Part shown: piece by piece, positions 3,518-28,029 of the stretch
Position numbering within the stretch: the stretch's first letter is position 1
How the letters are laid out: every line of letters starts with the position of its first letter
Assembly (NCBI GenBank): GCA_963422395.1
Contig: OY729431.1
Span: 44,449 to 108,448 of the forward strand
Source of the DNA: Vicinamibacteria bacterium
GTDB lineage: Bacteria > Acidobacteriota > Vicinamibacteria > Marinacidobacterales > Marinacidobacteraceae
DNA length: 64,000 nt
Direction: 5' to 3'
Translations under genes and position numbers: made by a program
The notes under the pieces: model-generated
Databases searched by the model: none
What the model was told of the DNA's origin: nothing
What the model saw: only the letters and a program-made list of their open reading frames with translations

Positions 3518-4864
3518 GTGAACACTGTGGAAACGAGTGAGGAACGAAGAGACGCCGACCTCGGCAATGTCTTCATCTCCAACTACCCGCCCTACTCGCG
3601 CTGGAATTCGGAGCAGACGGCGGCGCTCCATCGGGTCCTCGCTTCTGGCGGTCCGGGCGCGGATTCGAATACCGGAGAAGCGGCGGCGCTCGGCCTCTAT
3701 CTCCACATTCCGTTCTGCCGGAAGCGTTGCAAGTTCTGCTACTTCCGCGTGTACACCGACAAGAACAGCCGAGAGGTGGGACGGTACCTGGACGGCCTCG
3801 CCCGTGAAGTGGAGCTATACGCCGCGCAGCCGGCGGTTGCGGGAAGACCGCTGCGTTTCGTCTATTTCGGCGGCGGCACTCCCTCGTTCCTCAGCCCGAA
3901 GCAGCTCCGCGGGCTGGTCGCGCGTCTCGAATCCGCGCTGCGTTGGAACCGCGTGGAGGAAGTGGCGTTCGAATGCGAGCCGGGAACGCTTACCGCAGCC
4001 AAAGTCGAAGCGATTCGGAAGATCGGAGTCACTCGGTTGAGCCTCGGCATCGAAAATCTGAACGACGAAATCTTGCGAGAAAACGGCCGCGCCCACACCA
4101 CGCGCGAGATCCGCGCCGTCATGCCCTGGGTCCGGGAAGCGGCATTCCCGCAGGTGAATATGGATCTGATCGCCGGCATGGTGGGCGAGACCTGGCCGCT
4201 CTGGCGGCGCACGGTGCAGGAGACGATCGATCTCGACCCCGACAGCATCACCGTGTATCAGATGGAACTGCCTTTCAACACCGTGTACGCCAGGGATGTC
4301 CTCGACGATGGCCGCGAGGCGCCGGCTTTCGCCGATTGGGAGACGCGGCGCGAATGGCACGCCTACGCTTTCGAGCAATTCGCGGCCGCGGGCTACGAAC
4401 CGTCGAGCGCGTACACGGTGAAGAAACCGGGGCGCGGGATTCGTTTCCTCTACCGCGATGCCTTGTGGCGCGGCACGGACATGCTGGGCTGCGGCGTTTC
4501 CTCGTTCGGTTATCTGCAGGGTGTGCATTACCAAAACAGCGCCTCTTGGGATACCTATCTCGAAGCAGTCGAGCGCAAGAATTTTCCGATCGACCGAGCT
4601 CTCGAGACGACACTCCGGGAACGGCTGATCCGCGAAACGATCCTGCAACTCAAGCTGGGCCGCCTCGATCCCGGATACTTCCGCGAAAAATTCGGCGTCG
4701 AACTGACCGACGAGTTCGCTCCCGCCCTGAGCAAACTGCAGCGCGAGAACATGATGACGCTCGACGGAGATGGCATTCGGCTGACTCCCGAAGGCCTGCT
4801 TCGGGTGGATTCGCTGCTGCCCGAGTTCTACGAGCCGGAGAACCGGAACATCGCGTATGTCTGA
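3518..4864 (+). CDS. radical SAM protein, HemN/HemW family (oxygen-independent coproporphyrinogen-III oxidase-like)
   Basis: Contains the CxxxCxxC radical SAM cluster motif in LYLHIPFCRKRCKFCYF, then GGGTPS. A C-terminal HemN_C-like region is present. The GTG start at 3518 directly abuts the TGA at 3515-3517 of the upstream gene. Confidence 0.7.
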   Translation: MNTVETSEERRDADLGNVFISNYPPYSRWNSEQTAALHRVLASGGPGADSNTGEAAALGLYLHIPFCRKRCKFCYFRVYTDKNSREVGRYLDGLAREVELYAAQPAVAGRPLRFVYFGGGTPSFLSPKQLRGLVARLESALRWNRVEEVAFECEPGTLTAAKVEAIRKIGVTRLSLGIENLNDEILRENGRAHTTREIRAVMPWVREAAFPQVNMDLIAGMVGETWPLWRRTVQETIDLDPDSITVYQMELPFNTVYARDVLDDGREAPAFADWETRREWHAYAFEQFAAAGYEPSSAYTVKKPGRGIRFLYRDALWRGTDMLGCGVSSFGYLQGVHYQNSASWDTYLEAVERKNFPIDRALETTLRERLIRETILQLKLGRLDPGYFREKFGVELTDEFAPALSKLQRENMMTLDGDGIRLTPEGLLRVDSLLPEFYEPENRNIAYV

Positions 4865-4909
4865 GGGCGCTCTCGGCTGAAGCAGGCCGCTGCCCCCTCC
4901 TGCGAATCC

Positions 4910-6166
4910 ATGACTCGGGACGGGATCGATGTAGTCGTCCTGGGCGGAGGGCCGGCTGGTTGCACGACGGCGACCCTGATCGCCCGACAGGGATTTCGAG
5001 TGGCGCTCCTCGAACGGGAGCCGACGCCCGCTTTCAAGGTGGGCGAATCGCTCGTCCCCCATACCTATGGAACCTTCGCCCGGCTCGGCTTGCTCGACGA
5101 GCTGAAGCGAAGTCACTTCCAGCGCAAGCACAGCGTGCAGTTCGTGAATGCCGCCGGCCGCGCGTCGGCGCCTTTCTATTTTTCGGAGACCGACCCCCAC
5201 GAGCGCTCGACGACCTGGCAGGTGCTGCGAAGCGAGTTCGACCAGTTGATGCTCGACAATGCCGCTAGAAGCGGCGTTCAGCTGCGGCAGGGCGTCCAGG
5301 TGCAGGAGATCCTGTTCGAGGGCGAGACCGCCGTTGGCGTCAGAGCACGAGAGCGCGGCGGCCCGGCTGCCGTGGATATCCCCGCCAGAGTGGTGGTGGA
5401 TGCCACCGGGCGGAACGCCCTCCTCGCCAGACAGCTGAACCTGCTGGTCAGAGAACCGAACCTCCGCAAAGTCTCGATCTTCACCCATTTTCGGGGTGCC
5501 CGGCGCGGCGCGGGCATCGACGAAGGCGCCACCCTGATCCTGCACACCCGGAACCGAAAGTCGTGGTTCTGGTTCATCCCGCTGGCAGGAGATCTGGCGA
5601 GCGTCGGCGTGGTCGGTGATCTCGAGGCGCTGCAGAGCCGCGGCGGCGAGAACGGAGCCTCAGCGAGGTTCGACGAGGAGGTTCGCAACTGCCCCGCGCT
5701 CGAAGCCCGGCTGCGGTCGGCCGATCGCGTGCAGCCCGTCCGGGTGGTGCAAGACTTTTCCTACTGCTCCGAGCGCATCTCCGGGAACGGTTGGGTCCTC
5801 GTCGGCGACGCTTTCGCGTTCCTCGACCCCATCTATTCCACCGGCGTGGTGCTGGCTCTCCAATCGGGAGAAATGGCCGCCGACACGATCTGTCGTTGCC
5901 TCGCCGAAAACGATCTTTCGGGCGAGGCTCTCGGACGGTTCGCCGACCGGTTTCTCACCGGAATGCGGAGCTTTCGCAAGCTGGTGTACGCCTTCTACGA
6001 TCCGGATTTCGGATTCTCGGAGTTCCTCCGCGCCCACCCGGAGTGCCGGCGGGGATTGATCGACATCCTCTCGGGCAATGTCTTCGGCTCGGGCGTCGAG
6101 AGCATCTTCGTTCCCATGGAACGGATGTGCGGACTGCCCGGGGATGCGAGCGTCGGAGCGGTCTGA
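4910..6166 (+). CDS. flavin-dependent halogenase (tryptophan-halogenase family FAD monooxygenase)
   Basis: N-terminal dinucleotide-binding motif DVVVLGGGPAGCTTA. The halogenase hallmark WxWxIP is present as KSWFWFIPL. FKVGESLVP and the GDAFAFLDP FAD site are also present. Confidence 0.6.
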   Translation: MTRDGIDVVVLGGGPAGCTTATLIARQGFRVALLEREPTPAFKVGESLVPHTYGTFARLGLLDELKRSHFQRKHSVQFVNAAGRASAPFYFSETDPHERSTTWQVLRSEFDQLMLDNAARSGVQLRQGVQVQEILFEGETAVGVRARERGGPAAVDIPARVVVDATGRNALLARQLNLLVREPNLRKVSIFTHFRGARRGAGIDEGATLILHTRNRKSWFWFIPLAGDLASVGVVGDLEALQSRGGENGASARFDEEVRNCPALEARLRSADRVQPVRVVQDFSYCSERISGNGWVLVGDAFAFLDPIYSTGVVLALQSGEMAADTICRCLAENDLSGEALGRFADRFLTGMRSFRKLVYAFYDPDFGFSEFLRAHPECRRGLIDILSGNVFGSGVESIFVPMERMCGLPGDASVGAV

Positions 6167-6189
6167 GACCCTGCGCCGGTGACGGACGG

Positions 6190-7785
6190 TTGCTCTTCGG
6201 CGAAATCCTGCGGCGGGCCGCAGCGCGCGCGCCGGAGAAAACGGCGATTCTCGCCGGCAGTCGGCGACTTTCCTTCGCTGAGTACGACCGCCTCGCCAAC
6301 CGTTTCGCACACCTGCTGATCGCGGCCGGAATCCGCCCGGGCGACCGAGTCGCCTGCTCGTTGTGGAACAGCCCGGAATACGGCGTGGTCCATTTCGGGA
6401 ACGCGCGGGCGGGCAGCATCCTGGTCCATATCCCGCCGCTCTACGCTCCCCGCGAGATCGCACAGATCGTCTCCCGTACCGAACCGCGCGCCCTGGTGGC
6501 GGACGCCGGCGTTTTGGACCGGGTTGCCCCGGAGACTCTTCGCGCGGTCGGGACGGTGATCGCCGCCGGCGCTTCCGGCTTTGACGGTGCTCTCGGATTC
6601 GACGAAGCGATCGGCGGACAGCCCGAGCACGCTCCGGATCTGGAACTCGACCCCGGCGCTCCCGCCGCCATGACCTTCACCGGCGGTACCACCGGCGAGC
6701 CCAGGGGAGCCGTCGTGAATCACCGGGCGCGTCATGTCTCTGCGGTCACCACTGCGCGGGAACACCGGGTGACGGACCAGGACATCGTCGCCGTGATCAC
6801 CCCGATGTGCCACGCCGTGGGCCTGATGATCTGGCACCAGGCCGCCGTCGTGGCAGGGGCGGCTTCCGTCGTGTTTCGAAAGTGGGATCCGGAAGAGTTT
6901 TTCGCCGAGACCGAACGGCGCCGGATCTCCTCGGCATTTCTGGTGCCGGTCCAGGTGCGCGACCTGTTGCGGGCGCCCGGCTTCGATCGGGACCGGTTGG
7001 CTTCCTTGAAGAACATCGGGGTGGGGGGCGCGCCGACGCCGCCGGGGCTGATCGCCGAGTGGCGGGCCGCCCTTCCCTGCTGCGGGTACACCGACCACTA
7101 CGGTCAATCGGAAACCGGCCCGCTCACCATCCTGAAACCCGAGGAGACGGCGGCGCACTCCGGAACTGTCGGCCGCGCCGCGGCCGGCGTGGAACTCCGG
7201 ATCGTGGACCCCGCCGGCGACCCGGTCGAACCGGAGGCCGTGGGCGAACTCATCGCGCGCGGGCCTTTCCTGATGGACGGCTACTTCGGGGACGAAGCGG
7301 AAACGGCTCGCTATTTCCGGAGCGCCGACGGCTGGGGTTGGACCGGGGACCTCGCCCGTGCCGACGAGCAGGGCTACCTCCGGCTGGTCGGCAGGACTCG
7401 CGACCTCATCATCTCCGGTGGGTGCAACATCTATCCGGGCGAGATCGAAACCGCGCTGCTGAGCCATCCGGGCGTCGAGGACTGCGCCGTTTTCGGAGCA
7501 CCGGACGAACGCTGGGGAGAGGCCCCCGTCGCCTGTGTGGTCCGCTCAGCCGGGGGGCAGGCCGCTGCCGGGGAACTCATCGCTCACTGCACCGATCAGC
7601 GGGCGCGCTACAAGCGCCCGCGGGAAATCGTCTTCGTCGAAGCGATCGCGCGAACCCCGACGGGCAAGGTTCCAAAGCAGCTCCTGCGCAACGCTTACCT
7701 GGCCGGCCGGCTCAGCGAAAAGGCACTCCCACCGCCCGAGACAGGAACTCGACGAACGGCGAGGCCCGGCGCACCAACTCCGTGA
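6190..7785 (+). CDS. AMP-dependent synthetase/ligase (acyl-CoA synthetase, ANL superfamily)
   Basis: Core motifs of the ANL superfamily: MTFTGGTTGEPRGAV, YGQSETGP, GWTGDLA...GYLRLVGRTRDLIISGG and ARTPTGKV. The start is probably the TTG at 6190 (LLFGEILRRAAARAPEKTAIL); there is no in-frame ATG after the upstream stop at 6166. Confidence 0.65.
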   Translation: MLFGEILRRAAARAPEKTAILAGSRRLSFAEYDRLANRFAHLLIAAGIRPGDRVACSLWNSPEYGVVHFGNARAGSILVHIPPLYAPREIAQIVSRTEPRALVADAGVLDRVAPETLRAVGTVIAAGASGFDGALGFDEAIGGQPEHAPDLELDPGAPAAMTFTGGTTGEPRGAVVNHRARHVSAVTTAREHRVTDQDIVAVITPMCHAVGLMIWHQAAVVAGAASVVFRKWDPEEFFAETERRRISSAFLVPVQVRDLLRAPGFDRDRLASLKNIGVGGAPTPPGLIAEWRAALPCCGYTDHYGQSETGPLTILKPEETAAHSGTVGRAAAGVELRIVDPAGDPVEPEAVGELIARGPFLMDGYFGDEAETARYFRSADGWGWTGDLARADEQGYLRLVGRTRDLIISGGCNIYPGEIETALLSHPGVEDCAVFGAPDERWGEAPVACVVRSAGGQAAAGELIAHCTDQRARYKRPREIVFVEAIARTPTGKVPKQLLRNAYLAGRLSEKALPPPETGTRRTARPGAPTP

Positions 7786-19800: not shown

Positions 19801-19916
19801 CCGTCAGCCCCACCGGAAGTCCACGGCTTGCTCCAGCGCCGGGCTGTGGGGCTCCGGTTGCGGCAGGAGATCGGCCGGTCGCCAGAAAGCTCCGGGGAGT
19901 CGATCCCCAGCGAGAG

Positions 19917-20672
19917 CTATTCGACGAATGGTTCGAACTCTTCGCCACTCATCGGTTCGTGCTTGTCCCAACGGCTGTGCATCTCGATCAGCAGGCGCTG
20001 CGCCGTCGGATGGGGAGCCCGATTGACCCGCACCACACTGGCCCGATACTCCCCCTTCGACTCCACCATGCTCATCGTCAGATCGTGTACGAAGTACCGT
20101 GGCGCCCACCCGATCAGGAAATAGTCCCGAGTCTGAATCTGGACGGCAGGCTGCTTCGTCGGATTCGTGAGTTCCAGTGCGACATGCAGCTTATCGCCCG
20201 GCTGGAGAGAGTCCATCCGTTCCCGCGCTGACGGATTCGTGTGCCGGAAGCCGTGGAGAAAGAACCGACAGACGAAACTCCCGTCGCCCCGCTTGACGAG
20301 CTTCGGAAACACTTCGAAAAAGTCGGTCACCCGATACCCGCCGTCCACCCACAGGATCTCCGTGGGATCCACGGACGGGTCGAGACCGAGGCCTTTCAGG
20401 TAATCCTTGAAATCCGGACGGCGAGGCGACATGACCCGGTTCCGGAAAACCGGAAAAAGTTCGGACGACTCATAATCGCCGTGCAACTCGGCGAACCCGG
20501 GGACCAGATCGAATCCTCCGGTCTTCCGGGCGCGTTCCGCGCCTTTCACATGTCGAAATCGGTACCACGGCCTCGCCTCATCCGCATCCAGGCGCCCCAC
20601 GGGGAACCACTGCCGACTCGCCGCCCGATCCTGCCACCCCAAGTAGAGTGTTCTTTCGCTCACTTCATGCAA
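19917..20672 (-). CDS. hypothetical protein; N-terminus resembles the HipA N-terminal (Couple_hipA/HipS-like) domain
   Basis: A 251-aa ORF with a TTG start overlaps the HipA-like kinase gene end by 13 nt. The N-terminus LYLGWQDRAASRQWFPVGRLDADEARPWYRFRH follows the HipA-N pattern (LxVxLxGxxVGxLxxxxxxxxxFxY). Confidence 0.4.
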   Translation of the reverse strand: MHEVSERTLYLGWQDRAASRQWFPVGRLDADEARPWYRFRHVKGAERARKTGGFDLVPGFAELHGDYESSELFPVFRNRVMSPRRPDFKDYLKGLGLDPSVDPTEILWVDGGYRVTDFFEVFPKLVKRGDGSFVCRFFLHGFRHTNPSARERMDSLQPGDKLHVALELTNPTKQPAVQIQTRDYFLIGWAPRYFVHDLTMSMVESKGEYRASVVRVNRAPHPTAQRLLIEMHSRWDKHEPMSGEEFEPFVE

Positions 20673-21679
20673 TGCGCAATCTGTGCCGCATTGTAGTGCA
20701 TCAGCGCTACGGCGAAATCTTTCGCCGATTCCGACATCCAGTCATCAGGGACCCGCCGAACGACATCTCGAAGAGCATCGCGCTGCTCCCGGACTCTGGT
20801 GATCGGCTGGCGAAACAGATCTGGATACACCTCTGCAGCCCGACGCATCAACCCGATCGGGCTCGGGCCGTAACGACCGGAGTCGGACCAGAAGACGCCG
20901 CCGCGACCTTTCTCGGAATAGCAACCCACAGTCCCGTCCTGTAAGCCACGCCTTCGTTTTTCCTCGCTGAGCTCACGGCCGAGAGAGGAAGCGTGATCGA
21001 AAGTCGGCGCGAGAAATCCACAAAGGCCAGAAGCAGTTCGCTTCACGAGAAGCCCCCAATTTTCGTGATGACGATCGGTGTTCCCGATGAGCGCATCCAG
21101 GACGATGTACCCAGCGAACTGCCGTTTGGCAATAGCCGCCGCATTCCTCGTCTTGAATGACGCCTCCAGCGTGTGAAAGATATTGCTCAGCGTGTGGGCC
21201 GACTGTCCGAAACGCTTTTCTCGATCGTAACTTATGGTGGTTCTGGAGAGCACTTCGTTACCGTGGATCAGTATCCGTCCCCTGCGTGCGAAGGACTCCG
21301 TGACGGATCCGCGCACCCCCTGAAACATGGCCAGCTTCACGCCGGCATGGTGGACACCGAGACGACCTGCCGTCTCGGCGGCGATCTTTTCCGCCCAGTG
21401 TTCTCCGCTTCCTTCCCGTGGATACTTGAACAACCAACGGTCGTCCTCGTCAACGAGTCGGTACCAGAACTTGGGTTTGCTACCCATCGCCTCCGACCCG
21501 GTCCTCCACTCCCCTTCGACTGTGACGATCCGGTACGCAGCGGAACCGCGGCCCGCGGAGAGGCTCGACTTTCGAAAGGGCTCCGGCCGCGAAGCAGGGG
21601 GCCGGCCGCCGGCGGGTTCGCCGTTCGCGATGATCACGATGCCGTGCGCGAAGACCATTCGATTCCCACCGGGTCGCAC
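20660..21679 (-). CDS. HipA-like Ser/Thr protein kinase (HipA_C core, HipT-like size)
   Basis: Gly-rich loop AMGSKPKFWY and the catalytic motif LIGNTDRHHENWGLL (HipA DxHxxN) are present, with APTFDHASSLG downstream. The start is uncertain (ATG 21679, 21658 or 21487). Confidence 0.6.
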   Translation of the reverse strand: MRPGGNRMVFAHGIVIIANGEPAGGRPPASRPEPFRKSSLSAGRGSAAYRIVTVEGEWRTGSEAMGSKPKFWYRLVDEDDRWLFKYPREGSGEHWAEKIAAETAGRLGVHHAGVKLAMFQGVRGSVTESFARRGRILIHGNEVLSRTTISYDREKRFGQSAHTLSNIFHTLEASFKTRNAAAIAKRQFAGYIVLDALIGNTDRHHENWGLLVKRTASGLCGFLAPTFDHASSLGRELSEEKRRRGLQDGTVGCYSEKGRGGVFWSDSGRYGPSPIGLMRRAAEVYPDLFRQPITRVREQRDALRDVVRRVPDDWMSESAKDFAVALMHYNAAQIAHCMK

Positions 21680-24060
21680 GCAGACTCTTCGGAAGCCGGC
21701 CTCGTCGCGCGTAGGGCGGGTGCCCGCCGACCACAGGGCCGAAGCGGTTCGCCAAGGGCGAGGGCACCCTGCGGATCGCAGTCTTCGAGGGATTTTCTCC
21801 CGACCAGATGCGGCGAACGCTCATGATCCCTTTCCGGAGGAACGAGCGAGCGGGTTTCCCATCGGGATCCGAGCACCGGCGGAACCCGCTGGGTGTATGG
21901 GCTTGCTCCGGCGCCGGGCGTCCGGTAGAGATTTCGGATTTCGGTTTCCAAGACCTGCGGGAAGCTGGCGTCTCCGATTGCGAGCAGGGTAGCGAGCGCC
22001 GCGTCGCGGTCCCCCTGCGCCTTGGCGACCAGGGCCAGGTCGAAGCGAACGGCGGCGTCGTCGAGGACCGAACCCGGCCCGATCGCGGCGGCGGCACGCA
22101 AAAAGGCCGCCTCCGCGCGGTCCAACTCGCCGGCGGCGAAGGCGGCGAGACCTTCGGTCAACGCGGTCACTTCGGGCGGCTCGGGTCCGCCGTCGATTCG
22201 CAGTCGGTACTGCGGTCCTTCGGAACCGCCGCCAGCGCCCCCGGTGCGGACGAGCTGGTTTTTGGATACGACGACGGTCCCTCCGTGCACTTCCGCGGAG
22301 CAGTCCTCCCGCAGCGGGCCCTCCGGCGGACCCCAGGAAACACAGGTTTCTCTCTCGATTTCCTCATCGATTCCTCCACTTCTTCCTTCACCCGGCTGCT
22401 CCCGGACGAACGCGAACCCCCCTTCACGGGCGGCGACCGCCGCCGCCCGTCCGGGAACGACCGAGAGCGCGCGAAGTTCGCCCGGGTCCTCGGGCCCCCG
22501 CCCGGCGGCCACGGCAGCCACGGCGGACAGGACCAGAGGCGTTCCCCCTTCGGCTTCGTAGTCCCGCTGGATCGCGAACCGGTTGCCGGCGTTCGGCGCC
22601 AGCCCGGCAGCCACCCGGAGGCGTCCGCCGGGGACCGCTCGCACCACGCGCCGGTCGAGTCGCTGCGCCTCCTCGAGCAGCCGCTCGCCGAAGCGGGGCA
22701 CGAGCTGGTCGAGCAGAGCGAGCCGCGCCGCATCCCCGGCCTGTAGGGCAGCCGCCGCGCGCAGCAGCGAAATCGCCCGAGACACTGCCCGGGGCGGCGA
22801 TTCCGCCGTGTCGCGCAGCGTGGTGCGGACCGCGTCCAACAGGCGATCCTCGATGTCCCCGAGCGGTTCGGTTCCGGCCTCGAGCCGGAGGAGGATCTCG
22901 ATCAGCTCCGCCGCGCCGCGGGGAATGTCCACGAGCGGCTGGGGACCACCGGCAACGGGAGAATCGTCCAGGAAACGGAAGAGCGAAAGCAGGCGGCGGC
23001 GCACCGAATCGTCGGCGACGATGGGAAGGCGCCAGACGGACATTCCGGCGCGAGCCGCCAGCCAGAGCGTTTCCTCCGCGGAGTCCGATCCCGGAGGGAA
23101 GGGAATCGCAGCCCGGCGCGCCACATGTCCGATCGGGCGCGGCCGGAGCGCGGACCGCGCCGAAGCCGTCTGCGGCTCGGGCTGGAACAGACCGGCGCCG
23201 GTGAGCTGGGCGATCCTCGCCATGAGGGCCAGGTCGGCATCGGGGACCGCCGCGATCAGGTCCACCGCACGGCCCCGGAGCCCGATCTGGAGATCGCCGA
23301 TCACTTCTCCGCAGCGCGGGCACCCGGGCGCTGGGAAATACAGCAACAGCGAACGCCCTTCGGCAAACGAGCGGGCGCTCGACCAGGCGCCGCCGGAAAC
23401 GGCGAGGGTGAGCGCGGGAAAGGGGGCCTCCTGAGGGATCGCCCCTTCCGGGACCCTGTTCCGGGAAGCAGCGGGAGCCCGGAAACGGAAGCGGTCCAGC
23501 GCTGCGGCCAGTCCGTTTTCGGTCCGAAAAGCACCCGACCCGCGAAGCAGGTCGAGGACTTCCACGCGGTCCGGGTCCGGCGCCGCGGCCCAGGACCGAA
23601 GCAGCAAGGCGACGCGCTCCCCGAGATCGAGCTGCGGCAGGTCGGCCAGACGCCGCCAGGTCTCCGCCCGGGGGAGGAGGACCACTGCACGGCGGTACTC
23701 CCTTTCGGCACCGACAGGATCGCCGGCGGCGGCCAGCGCGTCGCCGAGGGTCTGCCGGTAGCGGGCCCGCTCTCGCCGATACGAGGCGCGGGCCGCACCC
23801 GTGAATTCGTCGAGCAGGATGCCCGCCTCGGGCGCCTCTTCTCGCCAGCGCTCCGAAGCGAAGCGTTCCGACTGTTGCAGGGCAGCGAAAGCGCTCTCGA
23901 CCGCCGCGGCGGCGTCAGCGGCTCCGTCACTCGCATCGAGCAGCCGCCTCGCTTCGGCGTGCTCGGCCGATCCCGGCAGCTGCCCCGCGGCCCCTCCGGC
24001 AGAATGCCCGATGGGAACGAAGACCAACGCCGCGAGCGCCGCCGGCCGGAGACCGCTCAA
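21634..24060 (-). CDS. exported protein with thioredoxin-like CxxC motif and TPR-like repeats
   Basis: TTG at 24060 overlaps the TGA of the upstream aminotransferase (TTGA). The signal-like N-terminus is LSGLRPAALAALVFVPIG. LLLYFPAPGCPRCGE resembles a redoxin WCxxC site. The long Ala/Leu/Arg-rich region is helical-repeat-like. Confidence 0.45.
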   Translation of the reverse strand: MSGLRPAALAALVFVPIGHSAGGAAGQLPGSAEHAEARRLLDASDGAADAAAAVESAFAALQQSERFASERWREEAPEAGILLDEFTGAARASYRRERARYRQTLGDALAAAGDPVGAEREYRRAVVLLPRAETWRRLADLPQLDLGERVALLLRSWAAAPDPDRVEVLDLLRGSGAFRTENGLAAALDRFRFRAPAASRNRVPEGAIPQEAPFPALTLAVSGGAWSSARSFAEGRSLLLYFPAPGCPRCGEVIGDLQIGLRGRAVDLIAAVPDADLALMARIAQLTGAGLFQPEPQTASARSALRPRPIGHVARRAAIPFPPGSDSAEETLWLAARAGMSVWRLPIVADDSVRRRLLSLFRFLDDSPVAGGPQPLVDIPRGAAELIEILLRLEAGTEPLGDIEDRLLDAVRTTLRDTAESPPRAVSRAISLLRAAAALQAGDAARLALLDQLVPRFGERLLEEAQRLDRRVVRAVPGGRLRVAAGLAPNAGNRFAIQRDYEAEGGTPLVLSAVAAVAAGRGPEDPGELRALSVVPGRAAAVAAREGGFAFVREQPGEGRSGGIDEEIERETCVSWGPPEGPLREDCSAEVHGGTVVVSKNQLVRTGGAGGGSEGPQYRLRIDGGPEPPEVTALTEGLAAFAAGELDRAEAAFLRAAAAIGPGSVLDDAAVRFDLALVAKAQGDRDAALATLLAIGDASFPQVLETEIRNLYRTPGAGASPYTQRVPPVLGSRWETRSLVPPERDHERSPHLVGRKSLEDCDPQGALALGEPLRPCGRRAPALRATRPASEESACDPVGIEWSSRTAS

Positions 24061-25238
24061 CGGAGGCGCTGCAATCGTTCGACCGCCGCGTGAAGCGTCG
24101 CCGGCGTCTTGCAGAAAGCGAACCGGAGACGCTGGCGGCCCGCGGCAGGATCCGCATAGAAGCTCGAACCGGGGACCGCGGCGACACCCACGGTTTCGAC
24201 CAGGTGACGGGCGAAAGCCGCATCGTCTTCGAACCCGAACTCCGAAATGTCGGTCATCAGGTAATAGGCCCCGGCGGGCGGAAAGCAGCGAAATCCGATC
24301 TCGCTGAGTCCGGCGATGAGGAGGTCCCGGCGCTCTTCGTATCCCGACCGCAGCTCCTCGTAGTAGGAAGGGGGCAGGCGCAGCGCCGCGGCGCCCGCTT
24401 CCTGGAGCGGAGCGGCGGCGCCCACCGTCAGGAAGTCGTGGACCTTGCGGATGGCGGCGGTGATGTCCGCGGGCGCCACCGTCCAGCCGACCCTCCACCC
24501 GGTCACCGAGTACGACTTCGACAGCCCGCTGATGGTGATGGTCCGTTCCGCCATTCCCGGCAGGGTGGCGAGCGGGATGTGACGAGCGCCGTCGTAGGTG
24601 ATGAACTCGTAGATCTCGTCGGTGATCGCGACGAGATCGTGTTCCTGCGAGAGCGCCGCGATCCGGGAGAGCTCCTCCCGGCCGAACACCTTGCCGCTCG
24701 GATTCTGGGGGGAGTTGACCACGATGGCCCGGGTGCGGTCCGACACTGCCGCCCGCAGCGCGTCCTCATCGAGCGACCATTCGGGCTCCGTGAGCCGCAC
24801 ATACCGGGGAACCGCTCCGGAGAGGACGGTGTCCGGCCCGTAGTTCTCGTAGAACGGTTCGAAGACGATCACTTCGTCGCCGGGATCCACCACCGCGAGC
24901 ATGGCGGCCATCATCGCTTCGGTGGAGCCGCAAGTGACGGTGAGGTGTTCCTCGGGGTCCACCGCCATTCCGTAGATCCGGCGGTAGCGGGCGGCGAGCT
25001 CCGCCCGGAGCGAGCTGGCACCCCAGGTGATGGCGTACTGGTTGAGATCGGCGCGGATCGCGCGGACGGCCGCTTCCTTGACCGCCTCGGGAGCCGGAAA
25101 GTCGGGGAAGCCTTGGGCGAGGTTCACCGCATCGTGGGCGAGCGCGAGCCGGGTCATTTCGCGGATGACCGATTCCCCGAACTGCGCCGCCTTCGCGCTC
25201 TCCCGGTAACGGCGGGGGCGGGACGGCACAGAGATCAT
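24057..25238 (-). CDS. pyridoxal-phosphate-dependent aminotransferase, class I/II
   Basis: ATG at 25238 overlaps the upstream stop (ATGA). VNLAQGFPDFPAP...NSPQNPSGKVF...SGLSKSYSVTGWRVGW is the PLP-lysine region. Confidence 0.75.
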   Translation of the reverse strand: MISVPSRPRRYRESAKAAQFGESVIREMTRLALAHDAVNLAQGFPDFPAPEAVKEAAVRAIRADLNQYAITWGASSLRAELAARYRRIYGMAVDPEEHLTVTCGSTEAMMAAMLAVVDPGDEVIVFEPFYENYGPDTVLSGAVPRYVRLTEPEWSLDEDALRAAVSDRTRAIVVNSPQNPSGKVFGREELSRIAALSQEHDLVAITDEIYEFITYDGARHIPLATLPGMAERTITISGLSKSYSVTGWRVGWTVAPADITAAIRKVHDFLTVGAAAPLQEAGAAALRLPPSYYEELRSGYEERRDLLIAGLSEIGFRCFPPAGAYYLMTDISEFGFEDDAAFARHLVETVGVAAVPGSSFYADPAAGRQRLRFAFCKTPATLHAAVERLQRLR

Positions 25239-27647: not shown

Positions 27648-28029
27648 GGGGGCGCACTGGGTTCGACGAAGGTACATGAGGCTGCGACTGCATGTCGGGG
27701 GTCCACCTCTCGTAAACGGTGGAAACAAAACACACACGCCAACACTGAACTGGCTCTGGCTGCTTAAGCCACGTCCTTCCTGACCTCGCCTGCCGGGCGG
27801 GAAAGGGCGTCGACTAGGTGGGCTTTGCCGGCGGTTCTCCCGGATCGTCGGTGAGCCTCAGGGATAGTTTCCGCAGCGCGACTCGCCGGGTCGATGCGGT
27901 GCGGAAGCGAACCGGGAAGGGCACCCTCGGGTGCGGATTCCCGAAACGACCTGGATATGCATGTAGAAGTCGCCGCGGAAGGCTTTCGGACGCGGGTTCG
28001 ATTCCCGCCGCCTCCACCATATTTTCCGC
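27648..28029 (+). ncRNA. ssrA: tmRNA (ssrA), tag peptide ANTELALAA
   Basis: The 5' GGGGGCGCACTGGGTTCGACG pairs with the 3' ...GGACGCGGGTTCGATTCCCGCCGCCTCCACCA, giving a T-arm and an acceptor stem with a G-U at position 3. The internal reading frame GCC AAC ACT GAA CTG GCT CTG GCT GCT TAA encodes the tag. Confidence 0.8.

Follow-up and report, generated by a model that had tools for sequence, protein, structure and literature searches.

The minus strand of the window, as the whole 64-kb stretch of DNA analysed is called here, carries two overlapping genes, at 20660..21679 and 19917..20672, that encode a kinase of the HipA superfamily and a protein recalling the N-terminal part of HipA. The initial annotation located both ORFs correctly and took them for a split HipA-type module with the HipS-like domain encoded downstream, a reading that is borne out by a kinase without N-subdomain-1 and by the coupling of the two genes. 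It also suggested that the pair represents an undescribed gene order or family. The locus raises the question of whether this organization is new, and of what the two proteins might do together.

The kinase gene hipI

The longest ORF of hipI (20660..21679, minus strand) starts with a GTG codon and encodes a 339-aa core Ser/Thr kinase of the HipA superfamily; in public records the product has 332 aa and starts from an ATG at 21658. Residues 1-45 constitute an extra N-terminal stretch that is not conserved, is disordered in the structure model and is absent from the homologues, which at 274-306 aa start around residue 50 of the window ORF. The conserved core starts at approximately residues 48-50 (~21535), leaving ~290 aa, and it is owing to the N-terminal extension that the annotated ORF, with 332-339 aa, slightly exceeds the 279-321 aa of published HipI proteins (Gerdes, Bærentsen and Brodersen, mBio 2021). 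HipA N-subdomain-1 is absent and the Gly-rich loop is positioned near the N-terminus of the core, as defined for the short kinases of hipIN modules, and the early description of the kinase as HipT-sized was right.

Translation confirmed the two motifs originally reported, the Gly-rich (P-) loop MGSKPKFW (residues 65-72; 21464..21487, minus strand) and the catalytic motif DRHHEN (residues 202-207; 21059..21076, minus strand), together with a Mg-binding motif, FDHASS (residues 227-232; 20984..21001, minus strand). All three are near-invariant in an alignment of 20 homologues: M65, G66, K70, F71 and W72 of the P-loop are invariant, and there is no variation in G199-N200-T201-D202-R203-H204-H205 or in N207, a stretch that aligns with the catalytic loop of CtkA. 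D228, H229, A230 and S231 of the Mg-binding motif are also invariant. Position 67 is occupied by Ser, Thr and Gly in 15, 3 and 2, respectively, of the 20 sequences. [quoted passage not shown] When HipA-related families were searched, as had been proposed with the annotation, Pfam HipA_C matched the kinase at 3.2e-13, past the curated cut-off; an NCBIfam search matched neither the kinase nor its partner.

The partner gene hipN and the gene junction

The second gene, hipN (19917..20672, minus strand), encodes a two-domain protein, a putative antitoxin or sensor, of 251 aa if translation starts from a TTG codon or of 248 aa if it starts from a GTG at 20663, the latter being the product held in public records. 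The TGA stop codon of the kinase gene overlaps the start of hipN (20660..20672, minus strand). The overlap of 13 nt given initially is correct for the TTG start and becomes 4 nt (GTGA) with the GTG start. This overlap of stop and start indicates translational coupling of two genes within one operon. Promoter and terminator scans of the minus strand outside the CDSs revealed nothing convincing.

HipN has 1444 homologues (1244 cluster representatives at 50% identity) and matches PHROG 8026 at 7.3e-43. In the AF2 model (pLDDT 89.2, pTM 0.85), a HipS-like domain that resembles HipA N-subdomain-1 (residues ~5-112; 20337..20660, minus strand) is followed by a HIRAN domain (residues ~118-235; 19968..20321, minus strand) that includes an NP motif, NPTKQPAV (20142-20165, minus strand). 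This is the two-domain architecture by which HipN proteins are defined, and within the family, HIRAN is matched in the C-terminal half of 75 of 88 members and Couple_hipA in the N-terminal half of 32 of the 88. The HipA N-subdomain pattern that had been read directly from the sequence of the partner was not significant when its N-domain was aligned by hhalign with 13 HipA N-termini, and HipS was not among the structures listed by a Foldseek search with HipN. The HipS-like domain is nevertheless the structural equivalent of part of full-length HipA, and the likeness is backed by the fold; the sequence pattern alone is without statistical support.

A PDB sequence search with one HipN profile, A1, returned no match; 3k2y and HLTF were matched only when a more diverse profile, A3, was used. 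The pocket in the HIRAN domain of HLTF that accommodates a DNA 3′-end is formed by R71, Y72, Y93 and D94. Aligned via 3k2y and HLTF, R143/H144 of HipN correspond to R71/Y72 and so are retained or similar, whereas T172/K173 occupy the positions of Y93/D94 and the canonical residues are lost. An Asp at the D94-equivalent position is frequent in the wider family (51 of 88 members) and rare among close relatives (3 of 32). HipN of the window lacks the full set of HLTF-type 3′-end pocket residues and, with Y93/D94 so replaced, sensing of DNA ends by this copy is doubtful.

Relationship to known systems

With a kinase gene that precedes one for a HipS-like/HIRAN protein, and without HipB, the window pair has the organization designated hipIN, for which 14 modules have been listed (Gerdes, Bærentsen and Brodersen, mBio 2021). 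The published modules and the window pair have in common a short HipA-core kinase with conserved Gly-rich, catalytic and Mg-binding motifs and no N-subdomain-1, a Ser/Thr at the Gly-rich loop, the absence of HipB and a putative antitoxin gene downstream, which in the window is located immediately 3′ of the kinase gene in the same operon. Published HipI proteins fall into subclades of main clade XI from Actinobacteria, Firmicutes, Proteobacteria and Cyanobacteria (Gerdes 2021). The window copy differs in host lineage, its closest relatives being in Acidobacteriota and other metagenome-assembled genomes, in the ~45-aa N-terminal extension of the kinase ORF, and in the replaced HIRAN pocket residues. 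The pair also has full-length matches to both PADLOC models of PDC-M03, in which the genes are similarly adjacent and co-oriented, the kinase to PDC-M03A (1.1e-80, residues 49-333) and the partner to PDC-M03B (2.5e-73, residues 6-249). PDC-M03 is a phage-defence candidate of PADLOC-DB, and the 145 PDC candidates were picked for embedding in BREX, DISARM or type I restriction-modification systems (Payne et al., bioRxiv 10.1101/2024.01.29.577857). This discovery criterion fits relatives located in type I restriction-modification systems, whereas the window copy adjoins no recognisable defence system. Operons of HipA and HIRAN genes have since been tied both to HipI and to the PADLOC prediction, with a diDNase as third gene in some Actinobacteria (2025 NAR paper); no diDNase gene is evident among the window neighbours. 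A literature search found no experimental paper on hipIN or PDC-M03, and the entry for clade XI in Table 1 of Gerdes 2021 is 'None'. Judged by architecture, gene order and the PADLOC models against the published definition, the window pair is assigned to hipIN/PDC-M03. It reveals neither a new gene order nor a new family, and on this point the initial annotation is not supported.

HipBST of E. coli O127:H6 is tripartite, with an antitoxin (HipS), a kinase (HipT) that targets TrpS and a regulator (HipB). The window pair is not such a tricistron, headed by HipB and with HipS upstream of the kinase: the order is reversed with the kinase first, HipB is missing, the HipS-like domain forms one protein with HIRAN, and the kinase, for which a PDB search gave no sequence-level match to HipT, belongs to another branch. 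With hipBA of E. coli K-12, the window kinase shares the superfamily, the catalytic and Mg-binding motifs and the P-loop Ser, but HipA (~440 aa) has its N-subdomain in cis and its antitoxin is the HTH protein HipB encoded upstream, neither of which holds for the window pair. HipL is a single chain of kinase, HipS-like and HIRAN domains (Gerdes 2021); the same three modules, in the same N-to-C order, are split in the window over two overlapping genes. The best PDB match of the window kinase, by both fold and sequence, is CtkA (JHP0940) of Helicobacter pylori (3AKJ). Since CtkA is a closer relative of the kinase than either HipA or HipT is, the targets of the latter two may not transfer to it. 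A search for literature linking CtkA and HipA found nothing useful.

The window locus and its probable horizontal acquisition

The 10 ORFs around the cassette have no PADLOC match and are housekeeping in appearance; this hipIN copy lies outside any defence island. The GC content is 0.61-0.63 at 20-22 kb versus 0.67-0.73 around, and GC3 is 0.68 and 0.74 for the cassette genes versus 0.77-0.88 for their neighbours. The flanks have no synteny in common with 80 related loci. The lower-GC3 segment falls between two copies of a 20-nt direct repeat, 19 of 20 positions being identical, with the downstream copy GGCTTGCTCCAGCGCCGGGC at 19825..19844 and the upstream copy GGCTTGCTCCGGCGCCGGGC at 21900..21919 (both plus strand). 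There are just these two copies across the 64-kb window, and the longest flank repeat in null sequences was 18 nt (1000 Markov) or 17 nt (~984 real-sequence). Upstream, a 954-aa ORF loses its coding signal near 21950. The dip in GC and GC3, the unshared flanks and the bracketing repeat are together consistent with horizontal acquisition of the cassette. In the 80 related loci, flanking direct repeats do not exceed chance (max 15 nt) except in L027, so the 20-nt repeat is not a family-wide feature.

An empty site would be expected to carry the repeat once, as GGCTTGCTCCRGCGCCGGGC, with an amidohydrolase gene on one side and the upstream gene on the other. A search of metagenome contigs for an empty site, by means of the 20-nt repeat, gave 40 matches, and none of them shares synteny with the flanks of the cassette. 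The tmRNA gene (27648-28019) was also considered as the integration site of a genomic island, an idea that was rejected because the lower-GC stretch beyond it codes for glutamine synthetase and an ammonium transporter.

Pairing of kinase and partner in relatives

hipN is located directly 3′ of the kinase gene in all 11 loci found via the kinase (all 7 genomic loci, all 3 viral contigs and one Vibrio prophage), and a kinase gene lies directly upstream of hipN, on the same strand, in 62 of 80 loci found via the partner. The gap between the two genes in relatives is from -9 to +30 nt, and in called genes it is -4 or +1 nt. No conserved third gene was seen beside hipIN in these relatives and no HTH or HipB-like ORF flanks the window pair, in agreement with the absence of such a gene noted at the outset. 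With only two peptide patterns used for the search, hipN-like genes were found in 530 of ~186,000 species-representative genomes.

In ~18 of the 80 partner-found loci, hipN is intact and the kinase gene is absent or reduced to its last 30-40 codons. Clean kinase deletions were recognized through synteny when L035/L065 were compared with L053/L067/L078, L030 with L028/L056, and L040/L057 with L050. Sequence masking does not account for the missing kinases, as N runs are confined to 1 of the 80 loci, which is not among the 33 whose kinase is absent or partial. Frameshift errors of metagenome assemblies, rather than decay, could account for some of the 'split' kinases seen in relatives. The kinase is thus lost alone and is never found without hipN, a toxin-like asymmetry which suggests that the kinase is the toxin. 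In L024, hipN has a start/stop overlap with a Fic/DOC gene instead of a kinase gene. Regular pairing of HipN with other toxins was considered and mostly rejected; in L021 the Fic gene of L024 is also present, 3 kb from an intact kinase gene and upstream of it, so that a deletion is the simpler reading of L024.

Proposed function of the module

The window probably carries a hipIN-type (PDC-M03) two-gene module, horizontally acquired by a high-GC genome that is probably acidobacterial, in which a kinase toxin is held by HipN and which functions in defence or DNA stabilisation. HipI is a HipA-superfamily Ser/Thr kinase cut down to its catalytic core, and HipN provides in trans the HipS-like fold, the counterpart of HipA N-subdomain-1, fused to a HIRAN fold. 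Through coupled translation of hipI and hipN, both proteins would be made together. By analogy with HipBST, in which HipS is the antitoxin of HipT, we infer that HipI is toxic and is neutralised by HipN. HIRAN would be the input or regulatory domain and bind nucleic acid, possibly the DNA ends of phage or of replication intermediates; alternatively, it may take over from the absent HipB and autoregulate the operon. Were HipN titrated, degraded or conformationally switched, HipI would be freed to phosphorylate an essential protein of the host. Going by HipA and HipT, this would most plausibly be a translation factor, for instance an aminoacyl-tRNA synthetase, and the growth stop that follows would result in abortive infection or in stabilisation of mobile DNA.

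Such toxin-antitoxin logic would be identical in a plain addiction or persistence pair that has no anti-phage role, stabilises its carrier DNA or yields dormant cells, and uses HIRAN as a DNA-binding autoregulator in place of HipB. In line with either reading, hipIN copies are present on plasmids and, adjoining an integrase, in a Vinavirales prophage. The solitary position of the window copy among housekeeping genes and the loss, in its subfamily, of the canonical HIRAN 3′-end pocket are also consistent with simple addiction. Close relatives, however, are found repeatedly inside type I restriction-modification operons with Abi-type genes, the context for which PDC-M03 was nominated. The pair is set between hsdM/hsdS and hsdR in L126, L127, L132, L133 and a Rhodococcus plasmid, with AbiTii, Schlafen-AlbA_2 or zeta-like genes alongside in the chromosomal loci of this set, and hsdR is located downstream of the pair (~30 nt to 3 kb) in 11 of the 80 loci. 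Copies are also represented in PHROG families. In addition, an operator-like palindrome, as might serve an autoregulator, was sought upstream of the window pair, where the inverted repeats are all weak and imperfect. We regard plain addiction as rather unlikely.

It is distinctly unlikely that the pair is a split, non-toxic signalling kinase, with HipN as an activating or targeting subunit and HIRAN recruiting it to DNA lesions or replication intermediates in a DNA-damage response. N-subdomain-1, the part of HipA to which the HipS-like domain is structurally equivalent, is integral to active HipA, HIRAN domains in eukaryotes participate in replication-fork remodelling (Gerdes 2021), and the housekeeping surroundings of the window copy, and the persistence of intact hipN without a kinase, which could mean that HipN has a function of its own, would be in accord with such a role. 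Against this, HipS acts as an inhibitor of the kinase in HipBST, the only characterised split system (Gerdes 2021), and the recurrent loss of the kinase, never present without HipN (11 of 11), is as expected if an unopposed kinase is harmful. The family distribution, patchy, horizontally transferred and partly embedded in restriction-modification systems, is also unlike that of a core repair pathway. That HipI is a CtkA-like secreted or translocated effector that acts on the cells of another organism, with a chaperone or an unrelated protein encoded downstream, is scarcely credible given a disordered, unconserved N-terminal extension that homologues lack, a strictly conserved and translationally coupled partner with HipS-like and HIRAN folds, and a family found in free-living phyla, plasmids, phage and restriction-modification operons.

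The loss of canonical HIRAN pocket residues, the survival of hipN after kinase deletions and the Fic/DOC overlap in L024 raise the prospect that HipN may exceed the role of antidote. In the subfamily from Acidobacteriota and other metagenome-assembled genomes it might be a portable sensor or regulator with a non-canonical ligand and different effectors, a conjecture that we consider very unlikely to hold. Similarly speculative, and separate from it, is the idea, hinted at by the 20-nt repeat around the window copy, of a 2-kb hipIN unit capable of autonomous insertion.

As a kinase module hipIN/PDC-M03 is widespread, and the window copy is a clean, intact representative of it from a high-GC lineage that has been little studied. 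The obligate pairing of kinase and partner, the recurrent loss of the kinase only and the embedding of relatives in type I restriction-modification systems provide testable support for a toxin-antitoxin and defence role of this family.

Identity of the gene pair

The pair belongs to a known, although uncharacterised, kind of module. The kinase gene hipI (20660..21679, minus strand, 339 aa, GTG start) is followed by hipN (19917..20672, minus strand, 251 aa, TTG start). The 13-nt overlap of the two ORFs noted in the initial annotation is present with hipN starting at TTG, and becomes 4 nt (GTGA) with the GTG start that gives the 248-aa HipN of public records, which indicates translational coupling under either start. 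Also as noted there, no HTH gene resembling hipB was found among the neighbouring ORFs flanking the pair. That annotation, however, considered the gene order or family to be undescribed, whereas the order, in which hipN follows the gene for a short core kinase, HipI, was published as hipIN by Gerdes, Bærentsen and Brodersen (mBio 2021) and the same pair is catalogued in PADLOC-DB as PDC-M03, models A and B of which match the window HipI and HipN at 1.1e-80 and 2.5e-73, respectively. The 2021 study counts 14 hipIN modules and names no member of clade XI that had been analysed by experiment, and later papers treat HipA plus HIRAN operons only descriptively. PDCs are 145 untested phage-defence candidates, nominated by their embedding in BREX, DISARM or type I restriction-modification systems (Payne et al., bioRxiv 10.1101/2024.01.29.577857).

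The HipI kinase

At 3.2e-13, the match of HipI to Pfam HipA_C clears the curated cut-off. Two motifs recognised originally, MGSKPKFW in the Gly-rich loop (residues 65-72) and the catalytic DRHHEN (residues 202-207), vary little or not at all across 20 homologues, as does a Mg-binding motif, FDHASS (residues 227-232), and the sequence identifies HipI as a predicted HipA-superfamily core kinase with its catalytic residues intact. Of the 20 sequences, 18 have Ser or Thr at loop position 67, in agreement with the remark of Gerdes et al. (mBio 2021) that Ser/Thr near the loop is usual in HipI kinases. As the homologues are 274-306 aa long and start near residue 50 of the window ORF, and residues 1-45 are disordered in the model (pLDDT <50), the functional HipI is presumably a core kinase of ~290 aa that lacks HipA N-subdomain-1. 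CtkA of H. pylori (PDB 3akj) is the closest solved structure to the kinase family, ahead of HipA and HipT, and the only meaningful PDB sequence relative of the family profile (3.9e-9); the tRNA-synthetase targets of HipA and HipT may therefore not transfer to HipI.

The HipN partner

The AlphaFold model of HipN, a confident one (pLDDT 89.2, pTM 0.85), has two domains, one predicted from this model to have the fold of HipS and the other that of HIRAN. Foldseek with the model confirms HIRAN; HipS is absent from the matches listed. Pfam HIRAN slightly misses its cut-off of 24.7 in the window protein (22.5 bits, residues 134-229), and matches 75 of 88 diverse family members. Couple_hipA, the HipA N-terminal domain, matches 32 of the 88, and every other family at most one; in individual members, Couple_hipA lies at residues ~17-112 and HIRAN at ~126-235. 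When the N-domain was compared, profile against profile, with 13 HipA N-termini, no significant similarity was detected. The likeness of this N-terminus to HipA-N, as first proposed, is therefore upheld by the fold and by weak family-wide matches but not by pairwise sequence statistics.

Through alignment with 3k2y and HLTF, the HIRAN motif NPTKQPAV (HipN residues 170-177; 20142-20165, minus strand) corresponds to HLTF NPYDKNAI, with T172/K173 equivalent to HLTF Y93/D94, which we take to be the DNA 3′-end pocket residues of HIRAN. Both the pocket Tyr and Asp are lost in the window HipN and most close relatives, the Asp being kept in 3 of 32 close relatives versus 51 of 88 wider-family members, and this replacement makes canonical 3′-end binding doubtful for the window copy. 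The HipN query also matches 21 separate stretches of a 5455-aa protein (P0287) and 17 of a 1645-aa protein (P0313), in both cases best within the HIRAN half (HipN residues 156-207 and 168-202, respectively), which suggests that these are proteins of many HIRAN-like repeats.

Distribution and asymmetric loss

The HipN family is large (1444 matches; 1244 cluster representatives at 50% identity), and two peptide patterns alone locate it in 530 species-representative genomes. It matches best in metagenome-assembled genomes (MAGs) of Acidobacteriota (up to 80% identity), Latescibacterota, Dehalococcoidia, Binatia, Gemmatimonadota and Proteobacteria. No flanking gene is common to the window and the 80 loci retrieved through the partner, which argues that the hipIN cassette moves horizontally.

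A kinase gene lies directly upstream of hipN, on the same strand, in 62 of the 80 loci, and the two genes are -9 to +30 nt apart in the ~45 that have a full-length kinase match. At about 18, hipN is intact and the kinase is absent or reduced to its last 30-40 codons, and comparison of syntenic relatives that have the kinase with ones that lack it shows a clean deletion of the kinase alone. Every locus found through the kinase (7 genomic, 3 IMG/VR and 1 Vibrio Vinavirales prophage) has the partner directly downstream. In the loci compared, pairing of hipI with hipN is therefore obligate and loss affects only the kinase; a kinase that is dispensable, yet never found without its partner, is the pattern predicted by a toxin-antitoxin pair.

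Examples of kinase-less hipN include L007 (5873-6747), L008, L013, L040, L030, L035 and L065, and sequence masking was ruled out as the cause when related loci were checked. About 15 further loci have a split or partial kinase match, possibly through decay or metagenome-assembly frameshifts. Other genes lie just upstream of some kinase-less hipN: one for a DUF7002 protein (L026, 5296-6744), one for a ResIII/RE_endonuc protein (L025, 2925-6774) and, in L024 (5240-6744), a Fic/DOC gene, its stop codon overlapping the start codon of hipN (ATGA). Effector swapping at hipN might account for the L024 arrangement, but L021 has the same Fic gene together with an intact kinase 3 kb further downstream, making kinase deletion in L024 the simpler reading. 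An orphan hipN in a Candidatus Multivorans MAG (L027) is flanked by a perfect 102-nt direct repeat (5873-5974 and 6801-6902), which might mark the boundary of a cassette or have arisen by duplication or as an artefact of assembly.

Association with restriction-modification and mobile elements

In relatives, the pair is associated with mobile elements and restriction-modification islands. Among the seven genomic loci retrieved by way of the kinase, four (L126, L127, L132 and L133) have the pair embedded between hsdM/hsdS and hsdR, within type I restriction-modification loci that span 3731-12940 in L126 and 3415-12948 in L127, and AbiTii, Schlafen-AlbA_2 or zeta-toxin-like genes lie beside it in these four, which are chromosomal. 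A type I restriction-modification operon on a Rhodococcus plasmid (NZ_CP088976) likewise has the pair within it, and 11 of the 80 partner-found loci have hsdR ~30 nt to 3 kb downstream of the pair. Copies are present on cyanobacterial and actinobacterial plasmids, and both HipI and HipN give full-length matches to PHROG families.

Vibrio phage 10N.222.46.E12_PE001 (PQ189286.1), a PM2-like (Vinavirales) temperate element of ~14.6 kb, has HipA_C and HIRAN genes (6015-7729, 4-nt overlap) that adjoin an integrase. There are four such records, and three IMG/VR contigs with the pair. On an Oscillatoria nigro-viridis plasmid (NC_019730.1), a 1.4-kb stretch with no CDS listed (3604-4995), upstream of the annotated HIRAN gene, may hold a kinase pseudogene omitted from the gene table.

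The window copy and its bracketing repeat

The window pair has neighbours that look housekeeping (multicopper oxidase, amidohydrolases, TonB-dependent receptor, aminotransferase, lytic transglycosylase, tmRNA gene, amtB and glnA), and none of ten nearby ORFs matched in a PADLOC search. The segment stands out in base composition, with a GC of 0.61-0.63 at 20-22 kb versus 0.67-0.73 on both sides, and a GC3 of 0.68 and 0.74 in the pair itself versus 0.77-0.88 in neighbouring genes. This lower-GC cassette is bracketed by a 20-nt direct repeat, GGCTTGCTCC[A/G]GCGCCGGGC, with only two copies in the 64-kb window (19825-19844 and 21900-21919; 19/20 identical). The longest flank repeats in nulls of matching geometry were 18 nt (1000 simulated) and 17 nt (~984 real-sequence).

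Directly upstream of the kinase, a 954-aa ORF (21634-24498, minus strand), with no match in Pfam or PADLOC, has coding-like GC3 from ~24100 to ~21950. Its coding signal fades near 21950, at the direct repeat, and over its last ~90 codons the ORF may run on into inserted DNA. The repeat and the fading signal fit insertion of a ~2.06-kb segment, and the repeat might have arisen by target-site duplication or be the remnant of an att-like site. As no empty site for the cassette and no equivalent flanking repeat in related loci were found, the repeat stays a locus-specific observation. The lower-GC stretch that follows the tmRNA gene (27648-28019, tag ANTELALAA) was rejected as an integrated island, as its genes are those for an ammonium transporter and glutamine synthetase.

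Possible function of hipIN

[quoted passage not shown] That the pair is a plain addiction or persistence toxin-antitoxin system with no role in defence seems unlikely. We consider a non-toxic split signalling kinase, brought to DNA by HIRAN, less probable again, as loss is asymmetric, removing only the kinase, and the distribution is patchy and mobile. A CtkA-like exported effector kinase is highly improbable, with the HipS-like partner conserved and the contexts wide-ranging. For the split HipA-type toxin-antitoxin candidate originally put forward, the observation itself is confirmed and the interpretation partly supported, its novelty being lost. The window adds one example rather than a new principle, and the hipIN family still deserves experiments.
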